Shown here in pieces: positions 3,398-19,296 of a DNA stretch of 59,654 nt (positions within the stretch are counted from its first letter, which is position 1; each line of letters starts with the position of its first letter). The notes beneath the pieces are model-generated. The model did not search any database. It saw only the letters and a list, made by a program, of their open reading frames with translations, and was not told the origin of the DNA. Source of the stretch: an uncultured Candidatus Saccharibacteria bacterium (GTDB lineage Bacteria > Patescibacteriota > Minisyncoccia > Phycocordibacterales > UBA5272); assembly GCA_964510805.1 (NCBI GenBank), contig CAZEDG010000004.1:1-59654 (forward strand). The letters are read 5' to 3'. A program made the translations under genes and the position numbers.

Positions 3398-3772
3398 ATG
3401 AAAACAAAAGAAAAAGGAGATCTTGCAGTAGGAAAAGCTATAAGTTTTTTTATTTCAAAAGGATATGAAGTTTGTTTGCCTATAGGAGATAAACGTGACT
3501 ATGATCTCATTGTTGAAAAAAATGGTCATTTACAAAAAGTGCAAGTAAAGTTCGCAGGATTATATACAAGGGGTAATGTGTGTAAGGTTGGTTTAAGGAT
3601 AACAGGAGGGAATCAATCATTTACACATTCAAAAAAATACAAAGATACTTCTTTCGATCTTCTTTTTATTTATACTGAAAAGGGTGAGCAGTACTTAGTT
3701 CCGTGGAAGGAAATCACATTTAGGAATGAGTTGTCAATTGAAACAAAAAAGTATATAATGTACAAGCAATAA
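3398..3772 (+). CDS. Small PD-(D/E)XK-fold endonuclease-like protein (YraN/Hjc-like).
   Basis: The pattern GDLAVGKAISFFISKGYEV...DYDLIVEKNGHLQKVQVK matches the YraN/Hjc layout (G..AE..A...L...GY...DxDLI....+..VEVK). It ends 5 nt before the tRNA. Confidence 0.5.
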   Translation: MKTKEKGDLAVGKAISFFISKGYEVCLPIGDKRDYDLIVEKNGHLQKVQVKFAGLYTRGNVCKVGLRITGGNQSFTHSKKYKDTSFDLLFIYTEKGEQYLVPWKEITFRNELSIETKKYIMYKQ

Positions 3773-3776
3773 AATC

Positions 3777-3863
3777 GCGTAGATGGTGGAGTGGCCAATC
3801 ACAATTGACTGTAAATCAATCGCCCTTCGGGCTTCGCTGGTTCGAATCCAGCTCTACGCACCA
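3777..3863 (+). tRNA. tRNA-Tyr (anticodon GTA). It is class II with a long variable arm, and the CCA end is encoded.
   Basis: Acceptor GCGTAGA/TCTACGC. Anticodon stem ATTGA/TCAAT with loop CTGTAAA. Variable-arm hairpin GCCCTTCGGGC. T-arm GCTGG-TTCGAAT-CCAGC, then discriminator A and CCA. Confidence 0.9.
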
Positions 3864-3866
3864 TAT

Positions 3867-3893
3867 GAAAAAGCGCCATCAAGGCGTCTTTTT
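3867..3893. terminator. Bidirectional hairpin terminator after the tRNA.
   Basis: AAAAAGCGCC-atcaa-GGCGtCTTTTT. Confidence 0.6.
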
Positions 3894-3901
3894 CGTATGA
3901 T

Positions 3902-3955
3902 GCGTAGAGCAGTAACAACATAGGGATGTTGTTACGGTGGGTTCGAACGAAAAAG
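3902..3955 (+). other. tRNA-like remnant. It has a copy of the tRNA-Tyr 5' acceptor strand (GCGTAGAG), an 8-bp hairpin and a T-arm-like GGGTTCGAAC, but no 3' acceptor strand.
   Basis: Sequence similarity to elements of the adjacent tRNA. Confidence 0.3.
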
Positions 3956-4094
3956 CGGTATACGAAAATAATACAAGAAAAGTTTTATTCCTGACTTTTC
4001 TTGTCATATTTTTGTCGCTTTTTCCCGGGGTCGAGGCTACGTGCCGAGATGATAAAAGCAGAGCTTTTAGAAGCGAGCCGTAGCGGTGACCGAA

Positions 4095-4111
4095 AATCCA
4101 GCTCTACGCAC
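4095..4111 (+). repeat. Direct copy of the tRNA-Tyr 3' end (AATCCAGCTCTACGCAC), att-core-like.
   Basis: A 17-nt match to 3846-3862. Confidence 0.7.
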
Positions 4112-4422
4112 ATTAACAAAAATGAACAGGTCTTTTATAGACCTGTCATTTTTGTATGTGCGTAGAGAGAAAGCCAACTGCTTGGCTTTCGTCTGGATTC
4201 GAAGTCCACAGTGATGTTTCGCTAGCAAACGAAACCACGAGGAGCCGGCCCTGGAGAAATTTTTGTGACGACAAAAATTTACTTGTGGGCGAATCCTCCA
4301 TTTTGATTCTGGGTTCGAACCAGGAAAGGGGTCGGGAAAACGTGTTTAGTTTTTCCCGTGGCGGAAGAATGGAAACCGAGGGGTTTCCAAACCGCACGCA
4401 ACGAAGTGAGGAAGGTTGTGAG

Positions 4423-4440
4423 ATTCCCAGCTCTACGCAC
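4423..4440 (+). repeat. Second direct copy of the tRNA-Tyr 3' end (ATTCCCAGCTCTACGCAC).
   Basis: Match to the tRNA T-stem and acceptor 3' strand. Confidence 0.7.
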
Positions 4441-4499
4441 AAAATAAGTTTCACTAAAAATCTCCTAAAACAAGGGTGTTTTTAGTTTTAACAAAATGC

Positions 4500-4528
4500 T
4501 TGACAAAGTTTTTTGTATGCGCTATAAT
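4500..4528 (+). promoter_or_regulatory. Consensus sigma70 promoter: TTGACA, a 17-nt spacer, then TATAAT.
   Basis: Exact hexamers with canonical spacing. Confidence 0.6.
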
Positions 4529-4534
4529 ATGGTG

Positions 4535-4622
4535 GCACGTCAGCCTGATGACCGAAAGAGGGAAACCTCCTGGTTTAAAAAACAGGCCGCCACTTCACCT
4601 TCGGAGTGGCGTTTTCTTTTTT
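4535..4622 (+). ncRNA. Candidate small RNA of about 85 nt running from the promoter above to an intrinsic terminator (GCCACT...AGTGGC plus a U-tract at 4589-4622).
   Basis: The promoter and terminator bracket a region with no ORF. Internal hairpins include GUCA..UGAC and GAGG-GAAA-CCUC. A single-stranded CCUCCU is present. Confidence 0.35.
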
Positions 4623-5012
4623 ATAATTTATTAAATTCGGTATATACGGAATCATTTTAGATTTCATCAATTCAGTTCGAACATTTTCTATTACTGTGCA
4701 CATTAACAAAAATGAACAGGTCTTTTATAGACCTGTCATTTTTGTATGTGCGTAGAGAGAAAGCCAACTGCTTGGCTTTCGTCTGGATTCGAAGTCCACA
4801 GTGATGTTTCGCTAGCAAACGAAACCACGAGGAGCCGGCCCTGGAGAAATTTTTGTGACGACAAAAATTTACTTGTGGGCGAATCCTCCATTTTGATTCT
4901 GGGTTCGAACCAGGAAAGGGGTCGGGAAAACGTGTTTAGTTTTTCCCGTGGCGGAAGAATGGAAACCGAGGGGTTTCCAAACCGCACGCAACGAAGTGAG
5001 GAAGGTTGTGAG

Positions 5013-5030
5013 ATTCCCAGCTCTACGCAT
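5013..5030 (+). repeat. Third direct copy of the tRNA-Tyr 3' end (ATTCCCAGCTCTACGCAT).
   Basis: Match to the tRNA 3' end. Confidence 0.7.
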
Positions 5031-5091
5031 CAAATAGTTTTCACTAAAAATCTCCTGTAAAAGCAGGGGATTTTTAGTTCTAGCAAAATAC

Positions 5092-5119
5092 TTGACAAAT
5101 ATTTTGTATTTGATATAAT
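5092..5119 (+). promoter_or_regulatory. Consensus sigma70 promoter: TTGACA, a 16-nt spacer, then TATAAT.
   Basis: Exact hexamers. Confidence 0.6.
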
Positions 5120-5125
5120 AGAAAT

Positions 5126-5189
5126 ATAAGGTGGCCTGAAGAAAAGTCCACCATAACATGGCCCGCAACTCGTTGCGGGCCTCTTTTTA
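5126..5189 (+). ncRNA. Candidate small RNA of about 60 nt ending at the intrinsic terminator GGCCCGCAA-CUCG-UUGCGGGCC plus a U-tract.
   Basis: Promoter and terminator pair with no ORF between them. It is paralogous in position to 4535-4622. Confidence 0.3.
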
Positions 5190-5316
5190 TCGAAAATTCT
5201 TGAGATTCGGCATATACGGAATCATTTTAGATTTCATCAATTCAGTTCTAACTTCGTCCACTACAGCGAGCATAAAGTAAATTTTCAGTAAGATCTCCTT
5301 TTTCCTGAAGTTTTTA

Positions 5317-5353
5317 CTACACTATAATTGACTTTGTGTCAATTATAGTGTAG
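5317..5353. promoter_or_regulatory. Perfect palindrome with 16-bp arms (CTACACTATAATTGAC, spacer tttgt, GTCAATTATAGTGTAG). Each arm embeds a TATAAT. It is an operator or divergent-promoter candidate.
   Basis: Exact reverse complementarity was read from the sequence. It lies 50 bp upstream of the 5402 gene. Confidence 0.6.
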
Positions 5354-5401
5354 TATATTTTTGTTGTACTTTTGCAACGTACAAGTAATCAGGAGTTGCG
5401 T

Positions 5402-5686
5402 ATGTCTTCCAACAAGCAAGAGCTCTCTACTCGTTCTGTTCGAGTGGGTAATATTTCTTTTCTTGTTCCGCCATATATTTACCGTATGAACAAAGGATGG
5501 TGCTTGATGTATCCGGGGTATCACTCTGTCTTTTTTGCTGATAACACCTACGGAGCGTCACTGTGGTCACTTCGAGCTTGTATTGACTGCAAGCTCGAGT
5601 TGCTCCGACAAAAACATGGTCGTCTTCCTTATGGACAAGGTAAGGCCCACAACGATGCCTTGATGTCGTATAAGAAGATTGCGTAA
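5402..5686 (+). CDS. Hypothetical 94-aa protein.
   Basis: AGGAG sits 7 nt upstream of the ATG at 5402. A terminator follows. Confidence 0.5.
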   Translation: MSSNKQELSTRSVRVGNISFLVPPYIYRMNKGWCLMYPGYHSVFFADNTYGASLWSLRACIDCKLELLRQKHGRLPYGQGKAHNDALMSYKKIA

Positions 5687-5726
5687 CAAGAAAGAGAAAG
5701 TAACACGAGTTCTTTCTCCTTAATTA

Positions 5727-5769
5727 CACCCCTCGAGATTTTTCTTCGGGGGGTGTTTTGCTTTTTTAT
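5727..5769 (+). terminator. Intrinsic terminator (CACCCC...GGGGGGTG plus a T-tract).
   Basis: Hairpin plus T-run. Confidence 0.6.
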
Positions 5770-5810
5770 GCTACACTAAAATTATCTATTAGAAGTAACT
5801 GCGAAACTAT

Positions 5811-6284
5811 ATGATACCAAGAAATCCAATTGGAATGAATCCTGGAAATTTACCAGAAAATCCAGCTAGAGACAATCACGCTTTTGTAAGAGAGGTTCAA
5901 CATATTGAAGATCATGGAGAAGAACCTAATGTGCTTGATAGGGCTCTTATGAGTCCGGAAGTTACTGCAAAAATCTTAACAAGAGAGTTAGATGGAATGG
6001 CTCATGTTGTTGCTAGTATTTTTATATTACTTGGTGAAAAAGGAATCGACTTGTATGACAATTCAAAGGGAGCACAAGAGGCTAGAGAGGTGCTTAGATC
6101 TTTTGAGATAGACGGCGATTTGTTGACACGGTTACTTGAAACAAGAGATGCATTAAGATCTGTCGAAGAGTTTTTACGAAAGCAGATGCCTCATCGAGAG
6201 TATATTGCAAGAGTGTTGCCAGAAGTTGAACGATATCAAAGCGCTGTAACTGCAGATAATAATAGTAGTCGTAAGGCTGGCTAG
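5811..6284 (+). CDS. Hypothetical acidic 157-aa protein, the first gene of a low-GC four-gene operon.
   Basis: ORF with 27-42-bp gaps to the following genes. Confidence 0.5.
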   Translation: MIPRNPIGMNPGNLPENPARDNHAFVREVQHIEDHGEEPNVLDRALMSPEVTAKILTRELDGMAHVVASIFILLGEKGIDLYDNSKGAQEAREVLRSFEIDGDLLTRLLETRDALRSVEEFLRKQMPHREYIARVLPEVERYQSAVTADNNSSRKAG

Positions 6285-6311
6285 TGGTAGAAAGTTGGAT
6301 AGTAGATAACC

Positions 6312-8420
6312 ATGTTCGAAGAATTTTCTCCTAAACCAGATTCGGTAGTTAATGATTCTATTCCTGATCCCCAAGCACAACCACAACTTTCTTATGAAGA
6401 GCGAATGCAACAACTTGAGGAAAGATTTAGTGTTGGTGTTCCTAAGCAAAAAATTAAAGAAGGTTATCAGACAGCAAGTCAGTTATATAAAGTTTTAAAT
6501 TCTTCTCCTGAAACTATTAGATTTATTGTTGAAGGTCTTAGAAAAAATCCCTTACTTGAAGAAGAAATACAAAAAAATGCAAAAAGTGGACCCAATAAAC
6601 CAACAGAAGCATACTCTCCGTTACTTGTTGAAAAGATTAGAGAAAAACTTAAAGAGAAACGTGAAGATAATATAATTAAAGAAGGATACAAGACAGCAAA
6701 TAAGTTTAGTACTATTTTAAAAAAAGATCCGAAGATAATTAAATCAACTGTTGCAACACTGCTTGCTAATGATCCGACACTTGAAGGTCAGATACAAAGA
6801 GGTGCAAGAACCGGAAGTCAAACAGACGATGCATATTCCCCAATATTGTTACAACTCATTGCAGATCAGTTTCCTCTATTAATGAAAAAAGGGTATTTAA
6901 AGTCAAAAAAACTTGGAGAGATTCTCGGGTATCATGACAAGACGATTAAATTAACGGTAAAAAAAATACTTAAGGAAAACCCATTACTTAAATCTGAGAT
7001 ACAAGAAAATGCAAGAGATGGAGGCTCTCCATCAGAAGCCTACTCTCCATTTTTAATCGAAAAAATTAAACAATTGTTAGATGGTTTAAATCCTAAGGAA
7101 GGATATATGACAGCAAGTCAGATACGTTACCATCTTGGCGCTGCCGTGCCTACAATTGAAAGTGCGATAGAAACGGTTAAATTTACAAGACCGGATTTAG
7201 TATCTCATGTACAAGAAATTGTAATGAGTGGAAAGAAAAAACGTAGCGCTTACTCACCTTTGTTTGTAGATGAAATTAGAAAAGTAATTAAATCTAGAGA
7301 TGTTAATCAAGGGTATTTAACTGTAAAAAAAATAGCACCACTTTTAAATTCCACTAGACAAACTATTGAGTTTATTGTTAAAGAGATCCTTAAAGAAGAT
7401 AAATTTCTAGAAAGAGAGATACAAACAAGAAATATAAAATGGGGCTCAGGAAAATCTCCCGATGCGTATTCTCCTTTTTTTATTGAAAGGATTAGAGAGA
7501 AATTAAATCTAAGTCGTAAGCAGAATATGATTAAGGATGGGTATCAGACAGCAAATGGATTACAAAATATTTTAAATAGTAATTCGAAAACCATTAAAAC
7601 AATAGTTGGAAAACTGTGCATAGATGTACCTCAGTATGAACAAGAAGTGCAAAGGAATGCAAAAATCTACAATAGATTTATTTCGGATGCATATTCTCCA
7701 CTTCTGGTTGAAAAAATTAGAGAAAAACTTAAGGAATCTGAACCTAAAATTCTTACTGTAAATCGTGGTTATATATTTCAGTACTCACTAGAACTCATTC
7801 TTAAACTTGTCGGTAATACAAATATTTTTGTTGAAAAAACCATTAAGATACAAGGAAGAAAAGGTAGCCACAGACCAGATCTGATGCACGTATCTTCTGA
7901 TGATCAAAAAGTAACTATCTTTGATATTAAGTTACAGACAACGACAATAGGTATAGAAAATGATATTGAAAATTATTCGCAATATATTAATGACAAATAT
8001 CCACAAGGTGGTAACTTGGTGTTTCTCTGTCTTAATGGGCCAGAAATTGGGAAAGAAGCTCTAGAAGGAAAAGAAAAAGTGACGGTACGGTATTATCATG
8101 CGCTTGATTTTATTGATAGATTGCTTGATAACTCACGCAATAAATTTCTATTACGCACCCTTAGAGGGAAAGAGAATGACAGTTTATCTGACACAGAACC
8201 TCTTACACCAGAAGAGATTACTAAGATAGAAGAAATTAAGTCACGATTACTTCTTCTAAGAGATCAAATACAGGGAAAAACTATTAACGGTGAGAATGGT
8301 GGTCCAGAACAAGTAGCAAAGAATACTCTCGCGTTAAGAACAAAATTAGGCCGTCTTGCAAAGAAGGCAACTAAAGAAGAGTTGTTACAACTTGATTACA
8401 CAACGTTGATGAATGTGTAG
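6312..8420 (+). CDS. 702-aa protein with six tandem ~70-aa repeats (consensus (K/Q)(E/D)GY.TA......TI...V.....E.Q.....G.....AYSP.L...I). The C-terminal domain carries a PD-(D/E)XK-like motif (RPDLMHV...IFDIK).
   Basis: The repeats are evident in the translation. The D...(D/E)xK spacing fits the restriction-endonuclease fold. Confidence 0.6.
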   Translation: MFEEFSPKPDSVVNDSIPDPQAQPQLSYEERMQQLEERFSVGVPKQKIKEGYQTASQLYKVLNSSPETIRFIVEGLRKNPLLEEEIQKNAKSGPNKPTEAYSPLLVEKIREKLKEKREDNIIKEGYKTANKFSTILKKDPKIIKSTVATLLANDPTLEGQIQRGARTGSQTDDAYSPILLQLIADQFPLLMKKGYLKSKKLGEILGYHDKTIKLTVKKILKENPLLKSEIQENARDGGSPSEAYSPFLIEKIKQLLDGLNPKEGYMTASQIRYHLGAAVPTIESAIETVKFTRPDLVSHVQEIVMSGKKKRSAYSPLFVDEIRKVIKSRDVNQGYLTVKKIAPLLNSTRQTIEFIVKEILKEDKFLEREIQTRNIKWGSGKSPDAYSPFFIERIREKLNLSRKQNMIKDGYQTANGLQNILNSNSKTIKTIVGKLCIDVPQYEQEVQRNAKIYNRFISDAYSPLLVEKIREKLKESEPKILTVNRGYIFQYSLELILKLVGNTNIFVEKTIKIQGRKGSHRPDLMHVSSDDQKVTIFDIKLQTTTIGIENDIENYSQYINDKYPQGGNLVFLCLNGPEIGKEALEGKEKVTVRYYHALDFIDRLLDNSRNKFLLRTLRGKENDSLSDTEPLTPEEITKIEEIKSRLLLLRDQIQGKTINGENGGPEQVAKNTLALRTKLGRLAKKATKEELLQLDYTTLMNV

Positions 8421-8454
8421 ATACTATGTGTATCACTTGCTATACTAAAACCAT

Positions 8455-9513
8455 ATGACACTAGGTCAAGAACGCAAAGTAACTAACGATCATAACAAAG
8501 CTCTCATTCTTAATGACAAGCTAGAAGAATTTCGTGAAGCTCATCCGCGATCAAAAAGACCTGACCAAGAAATAGTTGACGGGATGGTTAAAGATGACGC
8601 ACGCAATCTTTTTCCTTATAAACATTTTTCTCCTGATACCCAAGAGTGGCTTAGAAACTTATCAATTTCTGGAATTAAGGTATTAGAAGATGGGTATCTT
8701 GAGGTTCGTAAGTGGGATAATACTGGACGACATTTTGGTAGACCAAGAAGAATGTTCCAAAGAGTTGATGATATAGATGCCGGGATACGAATGCAAGATC
8801 ATATTCTCGAAGGGTATATTACAAGGAAAGATAGCAAAAAAGATAACAAAGAGAAGGCAAGAGAAGACGAAAGTGTTAGATTAGATTCTATCGAGGAAGT
8901 AATAGAAGAAGCAAACTCACTTTTTCTTGCGTGGAAGTTTGCAAAGCAGGAAGATAAAGAAGAAGTGAAGCAGAGACTTGCTCAAGTAATTCTTACTCTT
9001 GAAAAATGTCGCAATGAGTTCAAGGTACGAACAAAAAGACAAGCACAAGCAGTGCTTCGTATGAAGGATAGTAGAGGAAGAGACAATCCGAGCGCGCTCG
9101 CTCTCCGTACGGTCACCGCTCTTAATAATCTGCAAATGAGATTGCAAGAAATTCAGGATATTGCACCAAAAGTTGCTTTGCGAAAAGAGCTACTTGTACT
9201 TGAGAAGCGTCGAAATGAAAAGCTTTGTTTTAAGGCGGTTGCAAAATTACGTTTTATTTTACGACATGTGTTTTTTGGCAAGAGTCCAAAAAGTCTTAGA
9301 GACTCTGATGCTACCGGACTTCTCGGTAAAGTAGGAGAAGCCAAGGAAGCACTTCGCGAAGTCATCATTTCTCCTTATCGAGAAAGACGTAATCAGGTAT
9401 TGTTTTTTCTTGCAACCCTAGAAGATGTAATGAAATCAAAAGAATCAATGACAGAAAACAGAGAGATGATTAAGAAACTATTACTTGATATTATAAAAAT
9501 GTTGGAGGAGTAG
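8455..9513 (+). CDS. Hypothetical 352-aa coiled-coil-rich protein.
   Basis: ORF in the operon with no recognisable motif. Confidence 0.5.
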   Translation: MTLGQERKVTNDHNKALILNDKLEEFREAHPRSKRPDQEIVDGMVKDDARNLFPYKHFSPDTQEWLRNLSISGIKVLEDGYLEVRKWDNTGRHFGRPRRMFQRVDDIDAGIRMQDHILEGYITRKDSKKDNKEKAREDESVRLDSIEEVIEEANSLFLAWKFAKQEDKEEVKQRLAQVILTLEKCRNEFKVRTKRQAQAVLRMKDSRGRDNPSALALRTVTALNNLQMRLQEIQDIAPKVALRKELLVLEKRRNEKLCFKAVAKLRFILRHVFFGKSPKSLRDSDATGLLGKVGEAKEALREVIISPYRERRNQVLFFLATLEDVMKSKESMTENREMIKKLLLDIIKMLEE

Positions 9514-9555
9514 GTGTTGTTTTTGTGACTGGTTATTCCGTGCTACTATATCCTC

Positions 9556-10980
9556 ATGCAATATCTTCTCATTCCTTCCCGTCACATTCTTTATAGCAAA
9601 GAGCAGTATGACGCTTTGCTTAATCATCTTAAGAAAAATTCTTATGAGAAAGTAATTCTCGCGATTACTTCGTCTGATCTTAATAATTGTAAGTACTCAT
9701 CGATCGATATCTTCTATCGCACACTTATGGCAAGCACGCTTGCTGGGCATCTTCTTAGGGAATGTAATGCTACCTGTGTTATTACAACTGTTCCTCATAC
9801 CAGGAAAACAGATTCGTATGCATCGTATGTGGTGAAGCATGTTTTTTGGAAAATAGGGCTTACGCTTACACCAGAAAATACAAGAGTCTTCTCGTATGGA
9901 AAGTACATGTCAGAGTCTTTTTCTTCTGCTTCATATGATACCGTATCTTGTTTTGTTAAAGACCATGTGCATCTTTTTGAAAAACTTTTTAGAGAAGGGG
10001 ATAGTGAGTATTTTTGGAGTATGCTTTCTTTACCAAGTGAGCAAGTGTTTTCTCATCAAAGCGAACTTCTTGGAATAACCAAAAAAATATGGCTTGATCC
10101 TATTCTCAAAGAAATGGGAAGTATCACCGAGACACGTAATTATCATATTTATACGCATGCTATGAGTAATGAGCAGGTGATTGAGTACAAGTACAACGAT
10201 ATTAAGGATTATCTTGTGGAAGGAAAAATTGTTGATGAGGGGTGTGCTGATTGTGCGCTCTTTATTCCTGTTGCGCGAGACTTTCCTGATTCTGATCTTA
10301 TTGGTGTTGAGATCTCAAGTGATTTTATCGCAAGAGCAAATGAAAGAATCAGGGAAGGGTTCTTCGGTGGAAGCTTCGTGACAGTGCTTCAGGCGAATTT
10401 GCTTTTTCCTATTTTCCAAAATGAATCTATTGATACGGTGATTTGTAACTCTACGCTTCATGAGATTTGGTCTTATAATAACAAGATGGAATCTCTTAAG
10501 GGATATCTTACTTACAAATATAATCAGCTAAGGAAAGGTGGAAGACTTATTGCTCGTGATGTAGTTGGCGTGGAAGATCCTCGCAAGGTGGTGCTTCTTA
10601 GAGATGTGACCGATAACAATACGATGTGGAAGAAGTTCTTGAATGACTTTGATCATGTGGGTGATGATGTTTGCGAGGAGGTAGTGGTTAATGGTCAGGT
10701 CTATGCGAAGACTTCGTATAAGCTTGCTTCTGAATATTTGCTTCATAAGGATTATCAAGATAATTGGCAGAGTGAGATGCATGAAGAGTTTTGCCACATG
10801 AATAGTACTTCTTGGAAAGAATTGCTTCTTTCGGTCGGGTTTACAAACGTTATCGTGAATGCGTATCAGAATAGCTGGATTGTTGAGAATCGTTTCAAAG
10901 GTAAAGTGATACTTCTTGATGAGTCATTTCGCGAAGTTGCATATCCTCCAACAAATGTAGTGATTGTCGCGGAGAAGTGA
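9556..10980 (+). CDS. 474-aa protein with a C-terminal class-I SAM-dependent methyltransferase-like fold and an uncharacterised N-terminal half.
   Basis: Motif I-like VDEGCADCALF, post-I acidic LIGVEIS, and motifs II/III at FVTVLQANLLFP...IDTVICNSTLHEI. No D/NPPY motif, so it does not look like an N6/N4 DNA methyltransferase. Confidence 0.5.
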   Translation: MQYLLIPSRHILYSKEQYDALLNHLKKNSYEKVILAITSSDLNNCKYSSIDIFYRTLMASTLAGHLLRECNATCVITTVPHTRKTDSYASYVVKHVFWKIGLTLTPENTRVFSYGKYMSESFSSASYDTVSCFVKDHVHLFEKLFREGDSEYFWSMLSLPSEQVFSHQSELLGITKKIWLDPILKEMGSITETRNYHIYTHAMSNEQVIEYKYNDIKDYLVEGKIVDEGCADCALFIPVARDFPDSDLIGVEISSDFIARANERIREGFFGGSFVTVLQANLLFPIFQNESIDTVICNSTLHEIWSYNNKMESLKGYLTYKYNQLRKGGRLIARDVVGVEDPRKVVLLRDVTDNNTMWKKFLNDFDHVGDDVCEEVVVNGQVYAKTSYKLASEYLLHKDYQDNWQSEMHEEFCHMNSTSWKELLLSVGFTNVIVNAYQNSWIVENRFKGKVILLDESFREVAYPPTNVVIVAEK

Positions 10981-11160
10981 CGTATTAAAGCAAAAAAGCG
11001 TTGATAGATATACATAAAAAGGGAGATTTTATAGATAGAAATAATGGAATTGTAAATATTGACAAATATAATTATATATGATAAATTAATCTTGTCTCAA
11101 AATTGGGTTTCCCAACAAGAGCAAATGTAGTTCATCGTTAATCAATCAGGAGAATTCTCA

Positions 11161-13230
11161 ATGGAAACTGTAGGTGGTATCTTCAACGTGATTTCCGGCC
11201 ATCTTGGCACGATCATCGCTTTCATCGCCTTGGTCGCATTCATCCTCCTCTACAAGTGGACGTTCCGTCTCTTCGGCATCTACATCATCCCCGATGACTC
11301 GCTCGGCACACTGACCAAGAAGTTCGTGCTGTTCGGCGCGAACCGCCAGCTGCCAGCGGGCAAGATCGTGGCGCTCCACGGCGAGGCTGGCTACCAGGCC
11401 GACACCCTCGCTCCCGGCATCCACTTCTTTCTGTGGCCGTGGCAGTACGACGTGAACATCTCGAAGTTCACCGTGATCCCTCCGGGGCAGGTCGGTGTGG
11501 TCGAGGCGTGCGATGGTCTACCTCTTCCGGATGGGCGCATCATCGCCAAGGACGTCGTCTGTGATAACTTCCAGGACGCACGCGCCTTCCTCGAGAATAG
11601 TGGTGAGCGTGGCGTGCAGGTGGGCATCATCCCGCCTGGCGCCTGGCGCATCAACACTCTGCTGTTCACGGTGAAGATGTCCCCGATGATCGTCGTCGGC
11701 CCCAACCAGATCGGTGTGGTCGAAGCGCACGACGGTGCCCCGCTCTCAGGCGGGCGCATCCTCGGCAAACATGTCGACAGCGACATGTTCCAGGATGGTC
11801 AAGCCTTCCTCAACAACGGTGGTGAGCGTGGCCCGCAGATGACCATCATCCCCCAAGGTCAGTACCGGATCAATCCGGCACTGTTCAAGGTCGAGATGGC
11901 CGATGTGGTCGACGTGCCTGATGAGAAGATCGGGGTGGTCACCACCAAGGAAGGCGCTCCGCTTCCCACTGGCGACATCGCCGGCGAAGAGGTCGACGGG
12001 CATAACTCGTTCCAGGACCCGATGGCGTTCGTTGGAAGTGGCGGCACCAAGGGTCTCCAGGTCCAGGTGCTGCGCGCCGGTCGCTACTTCATCAACCCGA
12101 AGTTCGCCATCGTGGAGATGAAGGACATGCTCGAGGTGCCGATCGCGCACGTCGGCGTCGTCATCGCGTTTGTCGGCAAGAAGGGCGAGGACGTCACCGG
12201 TGCCGGGTTCAAGCACGGCAACATGGTGCGCAAGGGCGAACGCGGTGTCTGGATCGACGTGCTCGATCCGGGCAAGTACCCGATGAACCCGTACGCCTTC
12301 AAGGTGATCAACGTTCCGACGGCAAACGTCGTGCTCAACTGGGCCAACAGCAAGACCGAGAGCCACAAGCTCGACGAGAAGCTGTCGACCATCACCGTCC
12401 GCTCTTCCGACGGCTTCCCGCTCAACCTGGACGTCAGCCAGATCATCCACATCCCGACCAGCGAGGCCCCCAAGGTCATCGCCCGGTTCGGCAGCATGCT
12501 GGCGCTGGTCACGCAGGTGCTCGAGCCCACCATCGGCAACTACTTCCGCAACGCGGCGCAGAGCTACGGTTGCATCGACTTCGTCGTCGGCCGTGCGCAG
12601 CGCCAAGCCGAGGCTGAACAGGCCATCAGCGAGGCGCTGAAGGAGTACGACGTGGTGGCTGTCCGCACGCTGATCGGCGACCTCGTTCCGCCCCAGGAAC
12701 TGATGGACACGCTGACTCAGCGCAAGGTGGCCGAGCAACAGAAGCTGACGTACGGCGTACAGCAACAGGCGCAAGAGGCGCGCAAGCTCCTCGAGCAAGC
12801 GCATGCGCAAGCCGAGACCCAGGCGAGCGTGGTGACCGCCGAACGTTCCGTCGAGATCGCTCGCTTCAATGCGAGCGCCGCGGTGGAGACCGCGGAAGGT
12901 GGTGCCAAGGCGAAGAAGATCAACGCCAATGCGGACGCTGAAGTCCTCCGTGTCGTCGGCGAAGCCGAAGGCGCGAAGATCACTGCGGTGGGTTCCGCCG
13001 AAGCTGAGGTCATGACTCGCAAGACGACCGCCATCGGTGCCGACAACTACGCGCGCATTCAGGTCGCCGATTCGCTCGGCAAGGCCGGTATCAAGCTGGT
13101 TCCCGACGTCATGGTCGCAGGTGGTGACGGAACGCGCGGTGGCACCATTGTCGACGCACTGCTCGGCAACATCCTTGCCAAGGGTCTCCCTGGCACGCCC
13201 TCCGCGAAGCCGGCCGAAGCCAAGGCTTGA
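11161..13230 (+). CDS. Flotillin/SPFH (band-7) family membrane protein with an N-terminal TM helix, four ~60-aa internal repeats and an Ala/Glu-rich flotillin-type C-terminus. The CDS is strongly GC-rich.
   Basis: Repeats of the form IIPPGQVGVVEAxDGxPLPxGRI...FQDxxAFLxNGGERG. C-terminal AEAEQ.../EAEGAKI stretches. AGGAG lies 9 nt upstream of the ATG. Confidence 0.7.
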   Translation: METVGGIFNVISGHLGTIIAFIALVAFILLYKWTFRLFGIYIIPDDSLGTLTKKFVLFGANRQLPAGKIVALHGEAGYQADTLAPGIHFFLWPWQYDVNISKFTVIPPGQVGVVEACDGLPLPDGRIIAKDVVCDNFQDARAFLENSGERGVQVGIIPPGAWRINTLLFTVKMSPMIVVGPNQIGVVEAHDGAPLSGGRILGKHVDSDMFQDGQAFLNNGGERGPQMTIIPQGQYRINPALFKVEMADVVDVPDEKIGVVTTKEGAPLPTGDIAGEEVDGHNSFQDPMAFVGSGGTKGLQVQVLRAGRYFINPKFAIVEMKDMLEVPIAHVGVVIAFVGKKGEDVTGAGFKHGNMVRKGERGVWIDVLDPGKYPMNPYAFKVINVPTANVVLNWANSKTESHKLDEKLSTITVRSSDGFPLNLDVSQIIHIPTSEAPKVIARFGSMLALVTQVLEPTIGNYFRNAAQSYGCIDFVVGRAQRQAEAEQAISEALKEYDVVAVRTLIGDLVPPQELMDTLTQRKVAEQQKLTYGVQQQAQEARKLLEQAHAQAETQASVVTAERSVEIARFNASAAVETAEGGAKAKKINANADAEVLRVVGEAEGAKITAVGSAEAEVMTRKTTAIGADNYARIQVADSLGKAGIKLVPDVMVAGGDGTRGGTIVDALLGNILAKGLPGTPSAKPAEAKA

Positions 13231-13396
13231 CTCCTGGCTGGTTGAGTAACACTCACTAGTGCAAGGCTAGTGCGAGCCCTGTCAAACGTTAAATCGTTTC
13301 GGGGCTTTTTTCTTTTCCTAACTTTTACTATTTTTTGTATCGTGTACACATTATTAGCTTTTTTGTTGTGGAACTTTTTGGTAGTATATAAAGTAT

Positions 13397-14056
13397 ATGA
13401 GTACAAAGTCTTCAGATATTCGTTTTGCTATTGTTTCTACTGATATTATTTTGCTTCGAGAAAATGAAGGCGATATCGAATTTGGCGTGATGGATATTGA
13501 TAGACCTCCTTACTATGTTCATATGGAGGGTTTTGTCGGTGGTGTACTCAGACCAGAAGAGACTGCTCTTATGGCGAGTCATCGAATTTTGGAAGAAAAG
13601 ACTTCTATCAAACCTAGCGAAGTGCAGTTCTTTCCTCTTGGTTTTTATGATGACCCTAAGCGAGATGAGAGAGGGCGTGTCGTTGCGCTCGCATATCTTG
13701 GTATTCTTACGGGATCAGGTGAGGAATATGGGCTTACTTGGTACCCACTGTACAAGAAGGCAAAGTTTGCATACGATCACACACTTATGTTACGTGATAC
13801 GATAGAGTACCTTAAGTCACATCTCTATGTCTCAACGATTGCACTCGCGTTTCTCCCTAAACATTTTGTGGTAAGTAAACTCAAAGCTATTTTTGATTAC
13901 ATAGAAGGGGAGGAGATTGATAAGAGAAATTTTTATAAATTCCTAGACACCTATCCGGTAGAAAAAACAAAAGAACTGCAGAGTGAAGGGAGGGGGAGGC
14001 CAGCACTTATTTATAAGAAGAAACAGACTAAAGCTTTCTTTTTATCTAAGAAATAA
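13397..14056 (+). CDS. nrtR: Nudix hydrolase fused to a C-terminal winged-HTH, i.e. an NrtR-like NAD-metabolism regulator.
   Basis: Nudix box GGVLRPEETALMASHRILEEKTSI. C-terminal DKRNFYKFL...GRGRPALIYKK resembles the NrtR DNA-binding domain signature. Confidence 0.6.
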   Translation: MSTKSSDIRFAIVSTDIILLRENEGDIEFGVMDIDRPPYYVHMEGFVGGVLRPEETALMASHRILEEKTSIKPSEVQFFPLGFYDDPKRDERGRVVALAYLGILTGSGEEYGLTWYPLYKKAKFAYDHTLMLRDTIEYLKSHLYVSTIALAFLPKHFVVSKLKAIFDYIEGEEIDKRNFYKFLDTYPVEKTKELQSEGRGRPALIYKKKQTKAFFLSKK

Positions 14057-14140
14057 TGTTAGAACCTACACACTTAAGTGACGTGTAGAGAAAACACCTT
14101 ATTTGTGGGTGTTTTTTGCTTTATTTTGCTTGTACACATG

Positions 14141-14229
14141 TTAATTAGTGTAAAACTTGCACTAATTAATCACCTATGCTAGAGTGTAGATAGATATTAG
14201 TGTAGTTAATACACTAATAAATACAAAAG
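14141..14229. promoter_or_regulatory. Two palindromes upstream of the PP2C gene: TTAATTAGTG-N9-CACTAATTAA (14141-14169) and TATTAGTGTA-gttaa-TACACTAATA (14205-14229). Both share the half-site TTAGTGTA/TACACTAA.
   Basis: Read directly from the sequence. The same half-site appears upstream of nadE. Confidence 0.5.
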
Positions 14230-14289
14230 GAATCAATTAAAAATAATTCCATAAAGTTCTTTGAAATTATAGTTCTGAAAGGAAATCAT

Positions 14290-15153
14290 ATGAACACTGT
14301 TTCGCATCTTGAAGAATTGTTTAGAGTTGGTGCAGGAAAAGTTCCTGGAACTGATCATACAATGCCCGGGCTTCCTGCTTGGAAAAATTGTCAGGACGCG
14401 TACCGTGTAGAAATAAACAAGCACGCCATCGTTATCGTTGTTTGTGACGGTAATGGTAGTGAGTCAAATAGCGAAGTTGGAGCATCTCTTTCGGCGCAAC
14501 TCTTGGCAAGAAAAATTGCTGAAGAGGTGAAGATTAGAGAGGTTTTTGAACCAATCGAAATTCTTGAAGAGGCACGCTGTGCACTCATGCAACTTTTTCT
14601 TGATCTCGGTGAGCATCTTATGGGAAGCTTCACTGAGAACGCAAATCGTTTTATGCTTGCAACTGCGCTTGTTGCGATTGTGACCGAAGAAGAAACAGTA
14701 ATTGCTGGTATTGGTGATGGATATTATGCGGTAAATGGAGAAGTTGTTGAAATTGGCCCATTCCCTGGTAACGCACCACCGTACCCTGTCTATGCAATTA
14801 CCGGATCGTCACTTGCTTCGCATTCGCCTGAACTTGTTCGCTTCACTTTATATCGCAGGATGCCAACTCAAGAAGTTGATACGCTTGCGATTATGAGTGA
14901 TGGGGTGAAATATCTCATTCAAGCAGTTGGCACGCCTCTGCCTAAGAAGCCTCATGAACAAGTTCCTCCTCTTGATACATTTTGGTTGGAAGAGCGGTAT
15001 GTGAAGAATCCTGACAATATTCGTCGTCAGCTTGCGCTTATTAACATCGAAACGATTTCGTACACCGAAGATGGTAAGCCTTACTTACGTACTGGCGTGC
15101 TCAAGGATGATACAACAATTGTCATCATGAGGCGTAATACGTCTAGTACGTAG
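14290..15153 (+). CDS. PP2C-family Ser/Thr protein phosphatase.
   Basis: Metal-binding motifs VCDGNGS, GIGDG and MSDG. Confidence 0.65.
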   Translation: MNTVSHLEELFRVGAGKVPGTDHTMPGLPAWKNCQDAYRVEINKHAIVIVVCDGNGSESNSEVGASLSAQLLARKIAEEVKIREVFEPIEILEEARCALMQLFLDLGEHLMGSFTENANRFMLATALVAIVTEEETVIAGIGDGYYAVNGEVVEIGPFPGNAPPYPVYAITGSSLASHSPELVRFTLYRRMPTQEVDTLAIMSDGVKYLIQAVGTPLPKKPHEQVPPLDTFWLEERYVKNPDNIRRQLALINIETISYTEDGKPYLRTGVLKDDTTIVIMRRNTSST

Positions 15154-15178
15154 TCGTCTTGCTAACCCAAAAGGAGAT

Positions 15179-17056
15179 ATGATGGACGTCATGATTGATG
15201 GGAAGCGTTTTCGGACGAATCCTTCGAAACTTATCGGCCAAGGAGGTGAAGCTCTGATTTATGATATTGGCAACAATACCGTACTCAAGCTTTACAAACT
15301 TCCAACTCATCCTGACTTCGTTGGCAACAAGGAGGCAGTTGATGGCGCTGTTGCAAGAATTGCTGAACACCAAACCAAACTTGCTCTCTTTCCAAAAGGA
15401 ATGCCTAAGCGTGTAGTTGGTCCAAAGTCTCTTGCGCTTGATACAAAAGGGGATGTGGTCGGATACACTATGCCACTTATTTCTCAAGGAGAAGTGTTAC
15501 TTCGTTATGGAGAACGTAGATTCCGTGAGATGGGAGGCATCAAAGAAGAGACTCTTCGTCTGATTTATCTTGACCTTCATACAACGGTGCTTGGTGTACA
15601 TAAGGCTAATGCGGTAATTGGAGACTTCAATGACTTGAATGTGATTGTTGTTGGCGATGAAGCATATCTTGTGGATACTGACAGTATGCAATTTGGTTCA
15701 TTTTATTGTCGTGTCTTTACTGCAAAGTTTCTTGATCCGACTCTTGCAAAAGAGTCAGGTGGTAGTCTGATACTTGCAAAGAAGCACAATCAAAATTCTG
15801 ATTGGTATGCTTACAGTATCATGCTTATGCAAGCGCTCCTGTATGTTGGTCCGTACGGCGGAGTATTTCGCCCACAGGATAAAAATCATACCTTGAGTCA
15901 TGACTTGCGTCCACTTAAACGGATTACTGTTTTTCATCCTGAAGTTAAGTATCCAAAACCGGCACGTCATTTCCGTGTACTTCCGGACGATCTTTTGCAT
16001 CAGTTTGAAAACATCTTTACAAAAGATGTTCGTGGAGTATTTCCAAGACATCTTGTTGAAAGTCTTGTTTGGAAAACCTGTAGCACGTGCGGTATGCTTC
16101 ATATGCGTACATTGTGCCCGGCGTGTGTCCAAATGACACCTCCTATGGTGCAAGAAGTTTCTACAGATACAGTGACAGCACGTAAAGTTTTCAGGACAAC
16201 AGGAACGATTCTCACGGTTGCTTATCAAGGTCGCACTCTTAAGTGGGTGTATCATGAAAGCGATAGATATCTTCGTGAAGATGGAAGTCTTGTCGCACAT
16301 GGAGCTCTTGATCATCTTTTGCGAGTGAAGATTGTCGGTAAAGAAACATTGCTTGCAAAGAGTGGTCGTGGAATGCTTGTTGGTGCAAAAGGTGCACATA
16401 AGCATTACAGCTTCGACATGTTCGGCAATCTTCCGATTGTTGACACTAACAATGAAGCACTTTTCTTTGTCTTGAATGGAAGTCTTGTACGATCTCTAGA
16501 AAGCAGTCTTCTTTCAGGTGAAGAAATTATCGGAAGTGTGCTTGCTAACCGTACTCTTGTATGGGTTGGCGAAGAACTCGGCTTTGGTTTTTATAAAGCA
16601 GGGTCACTTACACGGTACTTGATCTGGAACATAAAGAGTCGCGCAATCAATGATTCGATTATTCTTCCTTCTGTATCTTCACAAATCGTTGATGCAAAAG
16701 CATATTTTGGTCACCGAAATGTTTGGTTCATGATGACCGTAAAAGAAGGAGGAGAAGTGTACAATCGCATGTATTTGATTAGTGATACTGGTCAAGTAGA
16801 AGCACGTGCCGAAGGGAAGGCAGGAGACTCTTCATGGATTGGAGATTTGCGCGGTAAGTGCGCAATCGGTAATGCACTCTTTGTTCCGACTGATGATGGA
16901 ATTGTACGTGTCGAAGCTAGACAAGGAACAATTGTTCCAGTCAAAGAGTTTTCTAGCACTACAAAATTCGTTGATAGCGCTTCAATGCTTTTTCCTGGAA
17001 ACCCAGGAATTGTCTCTGTGCGAAATGGAGAGATCTGGAATTTGGAAATGAAATAA
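15179..17056 (+). CDS. Protein-kinase-like (PKL-fold) protein with a Cys4 zinc ribbon and a long beta-rich C-terminal region.
   Basis: Gly-rich loop GQGGEA, Lys in TVLKLYK, catalytic-loop-like VIGDFNDLNV, DFG-like DTDSMQFG, and CSTCG...CPAC. Confidence 0.55.
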   Translation: MMDVMIDGKRFRTNPSKLIGQGGEALIYDIGNNTVLKLYKLPTHPDFVGNKEAVDGAVARIAEHQTKLALFPKGMPKRVVGPKSLALDTKGDVVGYTMPLISQGEVLLRYGERRFREMGGIKEETLRLIYLDLHTTVLGVHKANAVIGDFNDLNVIVVGDEAYLVDTDSMQFGSFYCRVFTAKFLDPTLAKESGGSLILAKKHNQNSDWYAYSIMLMQALLYVGPYGGVFRPQDKNHTLSHDLRPLKRITVFHPEVKYPKPARHFRVLPDDLLHQFENIFTKDVRGVFPRHLVESLVWKTCSTCGMLHMRTLCPACVQMTPPMVQEVSTDTVTARKVFRTTGTILTVAYQGRTLKWVYHESDRYLREDGSLVAHGALDHLLRVKIVGKETLLAKSGRGMLVGAKGAHKHYSFDMFGNLPIVDTNNEALFFVLNGSLVRSLESSLLSGEEIIGSVLANRTLVWVGEELGFGFYKAGSLTRYLIWNIKSRAINDSIILPSVSSQIVDAKAYFGHRNVWFMMTVKEGGEVYNRMYLISDTGQVEARAEGKAGDSSWIGDLRGKCAIGNALFVPTDDGIVRVEARQGTIVPVKEFSSTTKFVDSASMLFPGNPGIVSVRNGEIWNLEMK

Positions 17057-17122
17057 CAAGAAGAGGTCAGAAGATCTCCAGGTTATTTTTCATCAACGCT
17101 CAACCATGAAAGGAAACTGAGC

Positions 17123-18169
17123 ATGAACCCGTCATTCTACAACGCGAGCAATGCATCCAACTGGGCATATCGCCCCGATCAACGAGCTGTGTTTCTCGAA
17201 GCACAGGAAACCATCAAGCGTGAGAAGATTCGTCCTCACAACACTGACAAAAAGAAGGTACACCTTCTCATGATCGATGTGCAGAAGGACTTCTGTCTCC
17301 CGGAAGGAACTCTGTATGTTGGTGGTCGTTCTGGTACTGGTGCAATCGATGATTCTCGGCGTCTTGCTGAGTTCATCTATCGTGAAGTGAAGAACATTAC
17401 TGAGACAACGGTAACGCTCGACACTCACTTTTCTCACCAGATTTTCTTTCCGTCGTTTTGGGTTGAAACAGCAACCGGGTCTGCACCTCTTCCTCATACT
17501 GAGATTACAACTGAAGAAATTAGGAAGGGTAAGTTCGCACCACATCCGGCAATGGCTTGGCTCTTCAAGCAGTTCGGTGGTCAGTATGCTTGGCTTCAAA
17601 AACAAGTTTTGTACTATTGCCAAGAGCTTGAAAAGGCTGGTAAGTACAAGCTTTATCTGTGGCCTGAGCATTGCATCATTGGATCTGATGGGCACGCGCT
17701 GGTTGGTGTTGTGCATGAAGCACGCATGTTCCATTCGTATGTTCGTAGCGCTTGGTCGAACGCAGAAGTGAAGGGTGGTAATCCTCTGACAGAGAATTAC
17801 TCGATCCTTTCACCTGAAGTCACGACAACCTGGCAAGGTGGCGCGCTTGCACAAAAGAATTCCAATTTTGTGAAAACGCTCCTTGATGCGGATCGAGTGA
17901 TTATTGCAGGTCAAGCTTCGAGTCACTGTGTCGCGTCTTCTACGGACGACCTTTTGCATGAGATCAACGCTCAAGATCCTGAACTTGCAAAGAAGGTATA
18001 CGTTGTGACTGATCTTATGTCAGCTGTGACGGTGCCTGATGGTAAGGGAGGGTTCTATCTCGATTGCACTTCGCAAGCAGAGATGGCGTTTGCTCGCTGG
18101 GAAAAGGCTGGCATGAAGCTCGTCACTTCGACGGTAAGCATGGCAGACTGGCCCGGCATGGATCTCTGA
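17123..18169 (+). CDS. pncA: Nicotinamidase (isochorismatase-family cysteine hydrolase).
   Basis: LLMIDVQKDFC N-terminal motif and the catalytic Cys in SSHCVAS. Confidence 0.65.
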   Translation: MNPSFYNASNASNWAYRPDQRAVFLEAQETIKREKIRPHNTDKKKVHLLMIDVQKDFCLPEGTLYVGGRSGTGAIDDSRRLAEFIYREVKNITETTVTLDTHFSHQIFFPSFWVETATGSAPLPHTEITTEEIRKGKFAPHPAMAWLFKQFGGQYAWLQKQVLYYCQELEKAGKYKLYLWPEHCIIGSDGHALVGVVHEARMFHSYVRSAWSNAEVKGGNPLTENYSILSPEVTTTWQGGALAQKNSNFVKTLLDADRVIIAGQASSHCVASSTDDLLHEINAQDPELAKKVYVVTDLMSAVTVPDGKGGFYLDCTSQAEMAFARWEKAGMKLVTSTVSMADWPGMDL

Positions 18170-18202
18170 ACCTAACCAAGCAACCAAAGAAAGGAGTTCA
18201 TC

Positions 18203-19057
18203 ATGAGCTCAGTTTCCGTTAAGGACCTTTTCGGTGGGGCCGTCAATGTCGGTGATTTGTCGACACAAGCAATGCAACTTGTAACGGTTCCTGATGTTGG
18301 TAATCAGATTCAAGCTGGTCTTGGTATCTCAGTTGATGATGTGACCGCATCTGATGGGGTTACTCTCGTCGGTACTCTGATTGATGATTCTGGTTCTATT
18401 CGTAGTGCGGGTAATTCCCAAGTGGTGCGTGATGGTCACAATCTTGTGATTGATTCACTTGGTGCATCTAAGCAGAAGGATAGCATCCTTGCGCAGTGCA
18501 TGTACTTGAATGGCCACCAACATTATCCGTTTGTGATGTTGGATCAGACTGTTCCTATGACTGTGCAGAACTATAATCCGAACAAAGGCACCCCACTCTA
18601 TGATCAGTCCATCGTTTTTCTCGGGCTTCAGCTTGCAAAGGCACAGGAGTTCCTTGATAACGGAGTTGCTGTTCGTACGGTCGGTGCAATCATTACTGAC
18701 GGTGCTGATGTACATTCTGCAAAGACTGCTTCTGATGTGCGCAAGATTGTCGAAGATATGGTTAGGAGTGAGCGCCATATCGTGCTCTTCATGGGCATTG
18801 ATGATCAGTACACTGACTTTTATGAAGTTGCAAGTGGCTGGACCAAGGCTGAGGTAGAGCAGATGAAACAAGCTGACACGCTATCATCTGCAAAAGCAAA
18901 AGGGGGTATGGGTATTCCTCCGGCTTGGGTGCTCAATCCAGGTAATACGCAAAGTGAGATCCGCAAAGCGTTCGCGCTTGTCTCTCAATCCGCGGTACGC
19001 GCTTCGCAAGGGGGCAAAGCCTTCTCGCAAGTTGCAACTGGCGGGTTTGGTGGGTAG
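18203..19057 (+). CDS. von Willebrand factor A (vWA) domain protein.
   Basis: MIDAS motif DDSGS and the downstream TDG motif (ITDGAD). Confidence 0.55.
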   Translation: MSSVSVKDLFGGAVNVGDLSTQAMQLVTVPDVGNQIQAGLGISVDDVTASDGVTLVGTLIDDSGSIRSAGNSQVVRDGHNLVIDSLGASKQKDSILAQCMYLNGHQHYPFVMLDQTVPMTVQNYNPNKGTPLYDQSIVFLGLQLAKAQEFLDNGVAVRTVGAIITDGADVHSAKTASDVRKIVEDMVRSERHIVLFMGIDDQYTDFYEVASGWTKAEVEQMKQADTLSSAKAKGGMGIPPAWVLNPGNTQSEIRKAFALVSQSAVRASQGGKAFSQVATGGFGG

Positions 19058-19280: not shown

Positions 19281-19296
19281 TATAACATCATCACCT

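Follow-up and report, generated by a model that had tools for sequence, protein, structure and literature searches.

The 59,654-nt window analyzed here, which is part of contig CAZEDG010000004.1 from an uncultured Candidatus Saccharibacteria bacterium, contains a tRNA-Tyr gene that is followed directly by an array of five short non-coding cassettes and then by a long region of accessory genes. The initial annotation of this DNA regarded the array as a row of scars left by mobile elements; we reinterpret it as a family of conserved, structured cassettes that seem to mimic the end of the tRNA. Exact matches to the 3' half of the tRNA are confined to genome bins of Candidatus Saccharibacteria or 'Parcubacteria', and the relatives with ClpB at 80–91% identity are, every one, labeled as members of the candidate phyla radiation (CPR). 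The genomes of the CPR, including those of Saccharibacteria, are tiny, and to our knowledge the acquisition of genes by these bacteria is little understood. The window was compared with related contigs and assemblies (numbered L001 to L198). The gene order Fe-SOD, ClpB, (PDDEXK_5), tRNA-Tyr is common to the relatives, and the DNA after the tRNA differs in each genome.

The 13-mer CCAGCTCTACGCA from the 3' end of the tRNA-Tyr gene lies at 3848, 4098, 4427 and 5017, each time on the + strand. Four copies contrast with 0.05 expected in the window, and none of 100 shuffled sequences reached this number; direct repeats of the tRNA end, which had been reported initially, thus exist and exceed chance. 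The copy at 4095-4111 is identical in 17 of 17 nt, and those at 4427-4440 and 5017-5029 match over 14 nt and 13 nt, respectively. The complement of the tRNA end, TGCGTAGAG, exists on the + strand at 3901, 4159 and 4749, and has eight matches on both strands together (0.22 expected). The 332-bp core that had been noted is exact: 4108-4439 is repeated at 4698-5029 with 100% identity. Within the window, copies of the units occur at the tRNA only, except for one dubious 9-mer. The array was found again in two assemblies, L001 (100% identity over 3300-6400) and L005 (99.9%).

The limits of the cassettes lie at ...GCAC|, and the order after tRNA-Tyr is U1, U2a, B1, U2b and B2 (Table 1). The first element of a U cassette is a near-perfect palindrome, about 39-50 nt long, and a T-run comes after it; the sequence of the palindrome differs at every locus, and its Watson-Crick symmetry on both strands resembles that of a bidirectional intrinsic terminator. 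The palindrome is followed by M (a reverse-complement copy of the tRNA 3' end), by conserved hairpins, and by D, a direct copy that begins in the T-loop and ends at C74. The pairing of D with M encloses the hairpins. In U1 and U2, M is split at the boundary between acceptor and T-stem by a hairpin-containing stretch of 25-27 nt (27 nt in U1). The fold of 3902-4111 in U1, which is closed by the M-D stem, reaches -89.5 kcal/mol (z = -8.7) and is 13 kcal/mol more stable on the + strand than on the - strand; the 3' module of U1 aligns with units of relatives that are named alpha below. In U2a (fold z = -5.3), the M of the delta unit consists of GTGCGTAGAG, a CTGC-loop hairpin and CTGGATTCGAA, and the D end of this unit is decayed, while the beta unit terminates in D = CCAGCTCTACGCAC. 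A covariance model of the alpha family, R1, matches U2a at 4155-4306 with 32.9 bits.

Table 1. Features of the tRNA-Tyr locus and of the region downstream
Feature	Position	Strand	Basis or parts
Promoter-like site TTGTCA-17-TATAAT upstream of tRNA-Tyr	3731..3759	+	consensus scan 11/12, match only
tRNA-Tyr (anticodon GTA)	3777..3863	+	ARAGORN; Rfam tRNA 59.4 bits
Cassette 1 (U1)	3862..4111	+	sequence, repeats, fold
U1, palindrome	3862-3900	+	
U1, M	3901-3910 and 3938-3948	+	TGCGTAGAGC and TGGGTTCGAAC
U1, structured insert		+	
U1, D	4095-4111	+	AATCCAGCTCTACGCAC
Cassette 2 (U2a)	4112..4440	+	palindrome 4112-4157; delta 4158-4306; beta 4307-4440
Cassette 3 (B1)	4441..4701	+	hairpin; perfect sigma-70 promoter 4500-4528; terminator stem 4588-4611; conserved tail
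Cassette 4 (U2b)	4702..5030	+	exact second copy of cassette 2; last base T instead of C
Cassette 5 (B2)	5031..~5290	+	hairpin; perfect promoter 5092-5119; terminator 5160-5181; degenerate tail
Gene-carrying part of variable region	5291..23800		Pfam; tblastx against six relatives
Possible vestigial unit, intergenic gap	19084..19163	+	ACGTAGA...CCCTCTACGCA, then terminator-like hairpin

The promoter of B1 matches the consensus in 12 of 12 positions, and the predicted transcript is a hairpin of about 85 nt with a terminator (fold z = -3.5); the tail of B1 is conserved and unstructured (z = -0.05) and ends with ...CTATTACTGTGCAC, termed the 'Y end'. A short transcript of about 60 nt with a terminator is predicted for B2, which is closer to a B module of L130 (87% identical) than to B1. 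B1 and B2, which flank U2b, are only 76-81% identical, whereas the repeated stretch is 100% identical, and so the block of identity corresponds to exactly one cassette. This pattern is not that of a simple tandem duplication and points to an event in which one cassette was copied. No conserved reading frame was found in the B cassettes. A 41-aa open reading frame (ORF) in B2 was rejected, its ATG being lost in L130 (ACAAGG in place of ACATGG), and a 109-aa ORF over U2 has no homologs except its own copy and is thus not coding.

The stretch at 3902-3955 had been described as a partial tRNA-like remnant with the 5' acceptor strand, a hairpin and a T-loop-like GGGTTCGAAC. All of these parts are present; however, the stretch is no remnant of a tRNA, but a reverse-complement copy of the tRNA 3' strand, and it is not unique, as TGCGTAGAG recurs at 4159 and 4749. 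In general, the M arms represent the reverse complement of this strand, including the bases of the T-loop, and not the 5' half of the tRNA. In hosts with an asymmetric T-loop, M reads ACTCGAAC (L181 and L193) or ATTTGAAC (L160 and L177). The M and D arms match the tRNA-Tyr of each host, namely, TTCGAATCCAG..CTCTACGCAC in the window, TTCAAATCC..CCCTACGCAC in L160/L177 and TTCGAGTCCAG..CCCGGCGCAC in L181/L193, with M compensated each time. The M of L181 is a perfect 22-mer antisense to the tRNA 3' end.

In L130, L160/166, L169/170, L172, L177-180, L181/182 and L193-198, related units come after tRNA-Tyr where no large serine recombinase (LSR) element occupies the site, and the unit families were named alpha, beta, gamma and delta. 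Five units of the alpha family were aligned, with a mean column identity of 78%. RNAalifold predicted 35 pairs in this alignment; pairing is kept through changes on both sides in 12 of them, and G.U pairs are invariant. In the named alpha structure, 95.3% of the cells pair. None of 500 shuffles reached the observed value on four of the five measures and two of 500 did so on pair types, while controls in which the structure was slid gave at most two compensated pairs. The delta family (U2 at 4158-4306 together with its homologs in L193 and L194) has 48 pairs, 10 of them compensated. The core of the beta unit, which is fused to delta in U2, is GGAAAGGGGTCGGGAAAACGTGTTTAGTTTT(T)CCCGTGGCGGA and is near-identical in L181, although the ClpB proteins are just 84% identical. 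All 12 units are more stable on the tRNA (+) strand than on the opposite one, and most have more G.U pairs there. Template switching in long hairpins composed of D, palindrome and M could keep M matched to D without selection; it would not, however, explain the compensated internal stems. On this comparative evidence, the cassettes are conserved folded modules, not random scars. The repeats, which the initial annotation had taken as the bounds of degraded elements, are instead the ends of conserved structured cassette families that are also present at LSR-free tRNA-Tyr sites of other species. In Rfam, no family reached the gathering threshold for the units, and E-value thresholds gave spurious microRNA-hairpin matches only. 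ARAGORN and Rfam recognized in the array the true tRNA-Tyr alone; neither a cloverleaf nor a tRNA-like domain with a tag reading frame of the type of transfer-messenger RNA (tmRNA) was found in the units.

At least 10 different sequences follow tRNA-Tyr in the related contigs, and the divergence always begins directly past ...GCAC (C74). The same-species contig L004 shares 99.3% identity with the window over the 562 nt that end with the tRNA, and splits from it exactly after ...CTCTACGCAC; past the split, the minus strand holds the 3' end of an LSR gene. A full-length LSR (Resolvase, Recombinase and Zn_ribbon domains) and a Prim-Pol gene are located at the junction in L159, L161 and L162, whereas L160 and L166, with identical ClpB, lack this element; L159 and L160 are 100% identical up to GCACAG and unrelated past it. 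The LSRs of L159 and L004 are 65% identical. A truncated LSR is kept at the junction in L133-135, and about 80 nt of an LSR-element end remains after the tRNA in L129 and L146. More distant LSR homologs abut the 3' ends of other tRNAs (tRNA-Gln in L136; another tRNA end in L132). When the distal end of the LSR elements was sought, no second copy of its tRNA end was found in L136, and the element of L159 extended beyond the sequence examined. The proposal of an integration hotspot at tRNA-Tyr was borne out, and the junctions show, by alignment, that the 3' end of tRNA-Tyr is a hotspot common to a CPR clade and used by LSR elements in sister strains. Its last bases, ...TTCGAATCCAGCTCTACGCAC (D0, up to C74 at 3861), are, judging from the junctions, the primary attachment site.

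Closely related strains also differ by whole cassettes. Presence or absence at the exact junction could be aligned for L193 against L194-198 and for L172 against L171, as well as for L004 against the window and for L159 against L160. L193 has one additional cassette of about 227 nt, the junction of which lies inside D, compared with L194-198, which have identical ClpB. The unit of L172 terminates in a foreign-type tRNA-Tyr end, CAAATCCAGCCCGGCGCAC, and is lacking in L171 and L173, the ClpB of which is identical to that of L172. In L130, a B module of 240 bp stands as a discrete insertion, with the GCAC of the tRNA on one side and a native-type trailer, CATGAAAAAA..., on the other, and a gene-carrying cassette of the same contig shares the 'Y end'.

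The gene-carrying part of the variable region contains unknown ORFs, a methyltransferase, a GC-rich SPFH gene and NAD-salvage genes, and shows no gene order in common with the relatives. The common order restarts at about 23.8-25.6 kb (Exo_endo_phos and RNase HII, then HIT, DUF5671 and LeuRS), and the genes from Exo_endo_phos to LeuRS lie 1.6-5.6 kb past the tRNA in L181, L169 and L160. The variable region thus comprises about 20 kb, not 9.5 kb, and the accessory block does not end at 13.3 kb, as had been assumed, but at about 23.8 kb. The intergenic gap at 19084-19163 contains the sole further CTCTACGCA of the window, a single 9-mer that is not significant alone; its layout, a D end followed by a hairpin, is suggestive of a vestigial mirror/direct pair at an old distal boundary.

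Among the accessory genes, the SPFH/Band 7 gene (11161-13230, + strand) has a GC content of 55-64%, against about 40% elsewhere in the window, and by its composition this stretch is clearly foreign DNA within the variable region. An NAD-related cluster at 13397-23599 (an NrtR-like Nudix regulator, PP2C, NAD synthase, NAPRTase and a NadM-Nudix-like protein) is missing at this position in the relatives compared. A SAM-dependent methyltransferase (9556-10980, + strand) has a weak match to mad2 of the MADS defense system (PADLOC, E = 5.6e-13), and the ORFs beside it, 6312-8420 and 8455-9513, have no family; PADLOC and NCBIfam searches of the accessory ORFs gave nothing beyond this weak match. A perfect 18-bp inverted repeat, TACTACACTATAATTGAC / GTCAATTATAGTGTAGTA, at 5315-5355 overlaps a promoter-like site before a 104-aa ORF (5372-5686), and could be an operator or a terminator. 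Far downstream, at 57001-58000, the GC content falls to 0.23.

Upstream of the tRNA, a gene for a 124-aa PD-(D/E)XK protein (3398-3772, + strand; Pfam PDDEXK_5, E = 3.8e-24) stops 4 nt before tRNA-Tyr. Its sole solved relative is 2OST (E = 2.4e-09), which we take to be the homing endonuclease I-Ssp6803I from a group I intron in a tRNA gene. The PDDEXK_5 gene exists in the window, L129 and L169/170, and not in L130, L131, L160, L177, L181 and L193. As a free-standing homing-endonuclease-like gene at the hotspot, it could itself stimulate recombination there. Between ClpB and this gene, a 330-aa ORF (2301-3293, + strand) belongs to no Pfam family, and a scan of the genome collection gave no relative of it. 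Because this ORF is missing in L129, L130 and L131, the DNA upstream of the tRNA is also variable.

The comparisons described above show, at the level of sequence, a hotspot, the boundaries of cassettes, gain or loss of cassettes between strains, a conserved strand-specific structure, and M/D arms that follow the tRNA of the host. We consider it probable that non-autonomous cassettes accumulate at an attachment site that is regenerated by each of them, in a manner similar to the staphylococcal and Enterococcus cassette chromosomes (SCC and ECC), and that they make up the end nearest the tRNA of a variable island that spans about 20 kb. Incoming DNA would join directly after ...GCAC (C74), and the terminator-like hairpin at the cassette start would substitute for the tRNA's own terminator and serve any DNA that precedes the cassette. 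The last bases of each cassette repeat the tRNA 3' end (as D, or as the degenerate 'Y end'), and since they are a copy of the attachment site, insertion would regenerate the site and allow head-to-tail accumulation. Recombination between D copies would add, delete and duplicate whole cassettes, and M and D would pair to close the multi-hairpin fold on the tRNA strand. The site-specific recombination would be catalyzed in trans, most plausibly by tRNA-end-specific LSRs. The fold would act in a single-stranded state, either in RNA that reads through from the promoter of the tRNA or in single-stranded DNA; the promoter-like site before tRNA-Tyr is the only one that could drive read-through into the U cassettes.

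Several observations weigh against cassette accretion of this kind. As had been supposed, a recombinase is missing from the window: none was detectable in its 59.6 kb by Pfam searches of the large ORFs or by tblastn with an LSR fragment, and because recombinases were seen only in sister strains (L004 and L159), action in trans must be assumed. The first bases of the cassettes are unlike the junction sequence of the LSR elements, the P' arm (AACCCAGTATGAATGGAGG...), and use of the same LSR is therefore unproven. Serine recombinases need a dyad-symmetric attachment site of 40-50 bp around the crossover; M and D, an inverted pair with the palindrome between them, are about 45 nt apart, which seems too distant for half-sites of a normal LSR site. 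U units lie beside tRNA-Tyr at LSR-free sites of several species (L160, L169, L172, L177, L181 and L193), so that much of the array is possibly inherited vertically, and they have no promoter of their own and are positioned after terminators. In addition, the alpha-based covariance model revealed alpha/gamma-type units at 550-870 in L159-162; they belong to a second array (500-870), in which a palindrome and three such units lie between two convergent genes. The arms of this array, AAGGACTTG...CAAGTCCTT, are unlike tRNA-Tyr, and no tRNA was detected nearby.

In a rival reading, the main role of the U units is that of functional non-coding RNAs belonging to the transcription unit of tRNA-Tyr, inherited vertically and repeated by local duplication. 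We regard this as possible, with a confidence well below that given to cassette accretion. Such read-through RNAs, closed by a mimic of the acceptor/T-arm helix, would perhaps be processed by RNase P or RNase Z, or act on tRNA-Tyr through an antisense M. The compensatory changes and invariant G.U pairs, the better folding of the + strand in 12 of 12 units, the position directly after tRNA-Tyr in many species with no LSR element at the site, the near-identity of the beta core between genomes with ClpB 84% identical, and the perfect 22-nt antisense M in L181 are all consistent with RNAs. However, the gap between terminator and unit contains no promoter, a strong bidirectional terminator-like hairpin precedes every unit, strains differ by whole cassettes, the D end of L172 is of a foreign type, the duplication in the window is exactly one cassette, and neither Rfam nor ARAGORN gave a match. 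A role as RNA does not exclude cassette accretion. Rather unlikely, in our view, is an integron-like CPR system in which the tRNA-Tyr 3' end is the primary site and the alpha, beta, gamma and delta modules (mirror, insert and direct copy) are recombination sites that are read as single-stranded hairpins rebuilding the tRNA-end duplex, or in which the modules, as RNAs, make both strands of the tRNA end available to a recombinase; either of these, if true, would be an undescribed way to target a tRNA gene.

Plain scars do exist in relatives, as the LSR-element end of about 80 nt in L129/L146 and the truncated LSR in L133-135 demonstrate, and copies of a tRNA end in direct repeat are what scars would leave. 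Nevertheless, that the array consists merely of right-hand attachment sites (attR), decayed from successive large elements and without function or mobility of their own, seems improbable: free decay would be expected, yet conservation of the unit families, with compensated stems, extends across genomes; duplication of an attachment site leaves the inverted M copy unexplained; and LSR elements lie inserted ahead of the first unit, directly after the tRNA, indicating that the units pre-exist those elements. No less improbable is a spread of the units, as repeats resembling miniature inverted-repeat transposable elements (MITEs), REPINs or bacterial interspersed mosaic elements with M...D as inverted termini, by a transposase or HUH enzyme located elsewhere in the genome, terminator-rich gaps near a tRNA being merely tolerant of them. 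The modular mosaic of alpha, beta, gamma and delta, the inverted termini, the second array of L160 away from any tRNA and the hairpin-rich single-strand folds agree with such repeats. However, the termini are not constant, each copying the tRNA-Tyr end of its host; target-site duplications are lacking; no common sequence is seen among the hairpins with which the cassettes start; within the 59-kb window, dispersed copies are limited to the one dubious 9-mer; and no transposase was found. Finally, the units can hardly be decayed tandem duplicates of tRNA-Tyr, that is, pseudo-tRNAs with expanded loops. The window unit does begin with GCGTAGAG, like a tRNA 5' acceptor strand, and contains TTCGAA, like a T-loop. 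However, in hosts with an asymmetric T-loop the 5' arm has the sequence of the reverse-complemented 3' strand (CTGGACTCGAAC for L181, CTGGATTTGAAC for L177) and not that of the tRNA 5' half (GCTGGTTCGAGT or GCTGGTTCAAAT), ARAGORN and Rfam see no tRNA in the units, and the orientation of M in these hosts argues decisively against duplicates.

Three further candidates were rejected. The hairpins at the cassette starts are not IS200/IS605-type ends, having no common sequence, and the palindromes are not LSR half-sites, the strain junctions lying at GCAC| and not at the palindrome centers. Window positions 4290-4312 resemble the LSR P' arm in reverse complement, which was judged a coincidence because this stretch overlaps the mirrored T-arm. 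A blastn search of the region against a phage collection gave tRNA-level matches only, and in viral contigs scanned for the tRNA end, the beta core and the alpha core, only chance matches were seen. A pattern scan of metagenomes recovered one relevant locus (L146), the remainder being coincidence in coding sequences.

The locus represents a fixed entry point common to a clade, with elements of the serine-recombinase type, an accessory block of 20 kb and, as a further layer, tiny non-coding cassettes. If the folds are recombination sites or RNAs acting on tRNA-Tyr, they would represent a new class of tRNA-mimicking element and offer a means of engineering these bacteria, which are largely uncultured. 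If the cassettes are mere passengers, the array would still be a clean natural case of site-regenerating accretion at a tRNA gene.

Among known elements, MITEs and REPINs differ from the cassettes in that the termini here change with the host tRNA and copies in the window occur at the tRNA only, although L160 has one array away from any tRNA. The units are similar to tRNA-like structures (the tmRNA domain and viral 3' ends), as their paired ends form a helix of acceptor/T-arm sequence around a large structured insert; unlike these, they have no cloverleaf, encoded CCA or tag reading frame, and their 5' arm runs antisense to the tRNA 3' strand without interruption. Cis-mobilizable elements (CIMEs) and tandem accretion at tRNA 3' ends have reportedly been described in the work of Pavlovic, Bellanger and colleagues on ICESt1/ICESt3 of Streptococcus. 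Like CIMEs, the cassettes are non-autonomous, are flanked by attachment-site copies of a tRNA 3' end and would accumulate beside autonomous elements, with the integrase acting in trans; CIMEs, however, are kilobase-sized, carry genes, depend on tyrosine integrases, and have neither a conserved hairpin fold nor an inverted copy of the tRNA end.

The integron-like reading was compared with attC sites and with the folded attP of the CTX phage. As in integron arrays, a primary site is followed by cassettes, each of which ends in an imperfect-palindromic site conserved in structure and variable in sequence; the outer arms (R''/R' in integrons, M/D here) match the primary site, folding is strand-specific, and whole cassettes are gained, lost and duplicated. 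On the other hand, no Phage_integrase domain, and thus no IntI tyrosine recombinase, was found in the ORFs scanned; there is no GTTRRRY core (D ends with ...TCCAGCTCTACGCAC, and GTTCGAA does not fit); and the cassettes here are non-coding, with a tRNA end as the primary site. The resemblance to integrons is one of architecture only.

The closest documented system is SCC/ECC, in which an LSR inserts elements at the 3' end of rlmH, the attachment repeats contain inverted repeats, and multiple attR sites and recombinase-less remnants occur (PMC6222049). The target here is a tRNA gene, not rlmH, and the cassettes are non-coding and only 250-330 bp long, compared with 20-80 kb in SCC/ECC. The inverted copy here lies about 45 nt (the palindrome) from the crossover, the body of the cassette is a conserved fold with compensatory changes, and the window has no ccr-like gene, the link between LSRs and the small cassettes being unproven. 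In common with SCCmec/ECC (CcrAB), however, the locus has a conserved gene whose 3' end serves as the one fixed site, direct repeats at element ends that regenerate the site so that elements stack, and, in sister strains, a large serine recombinase at the junction.

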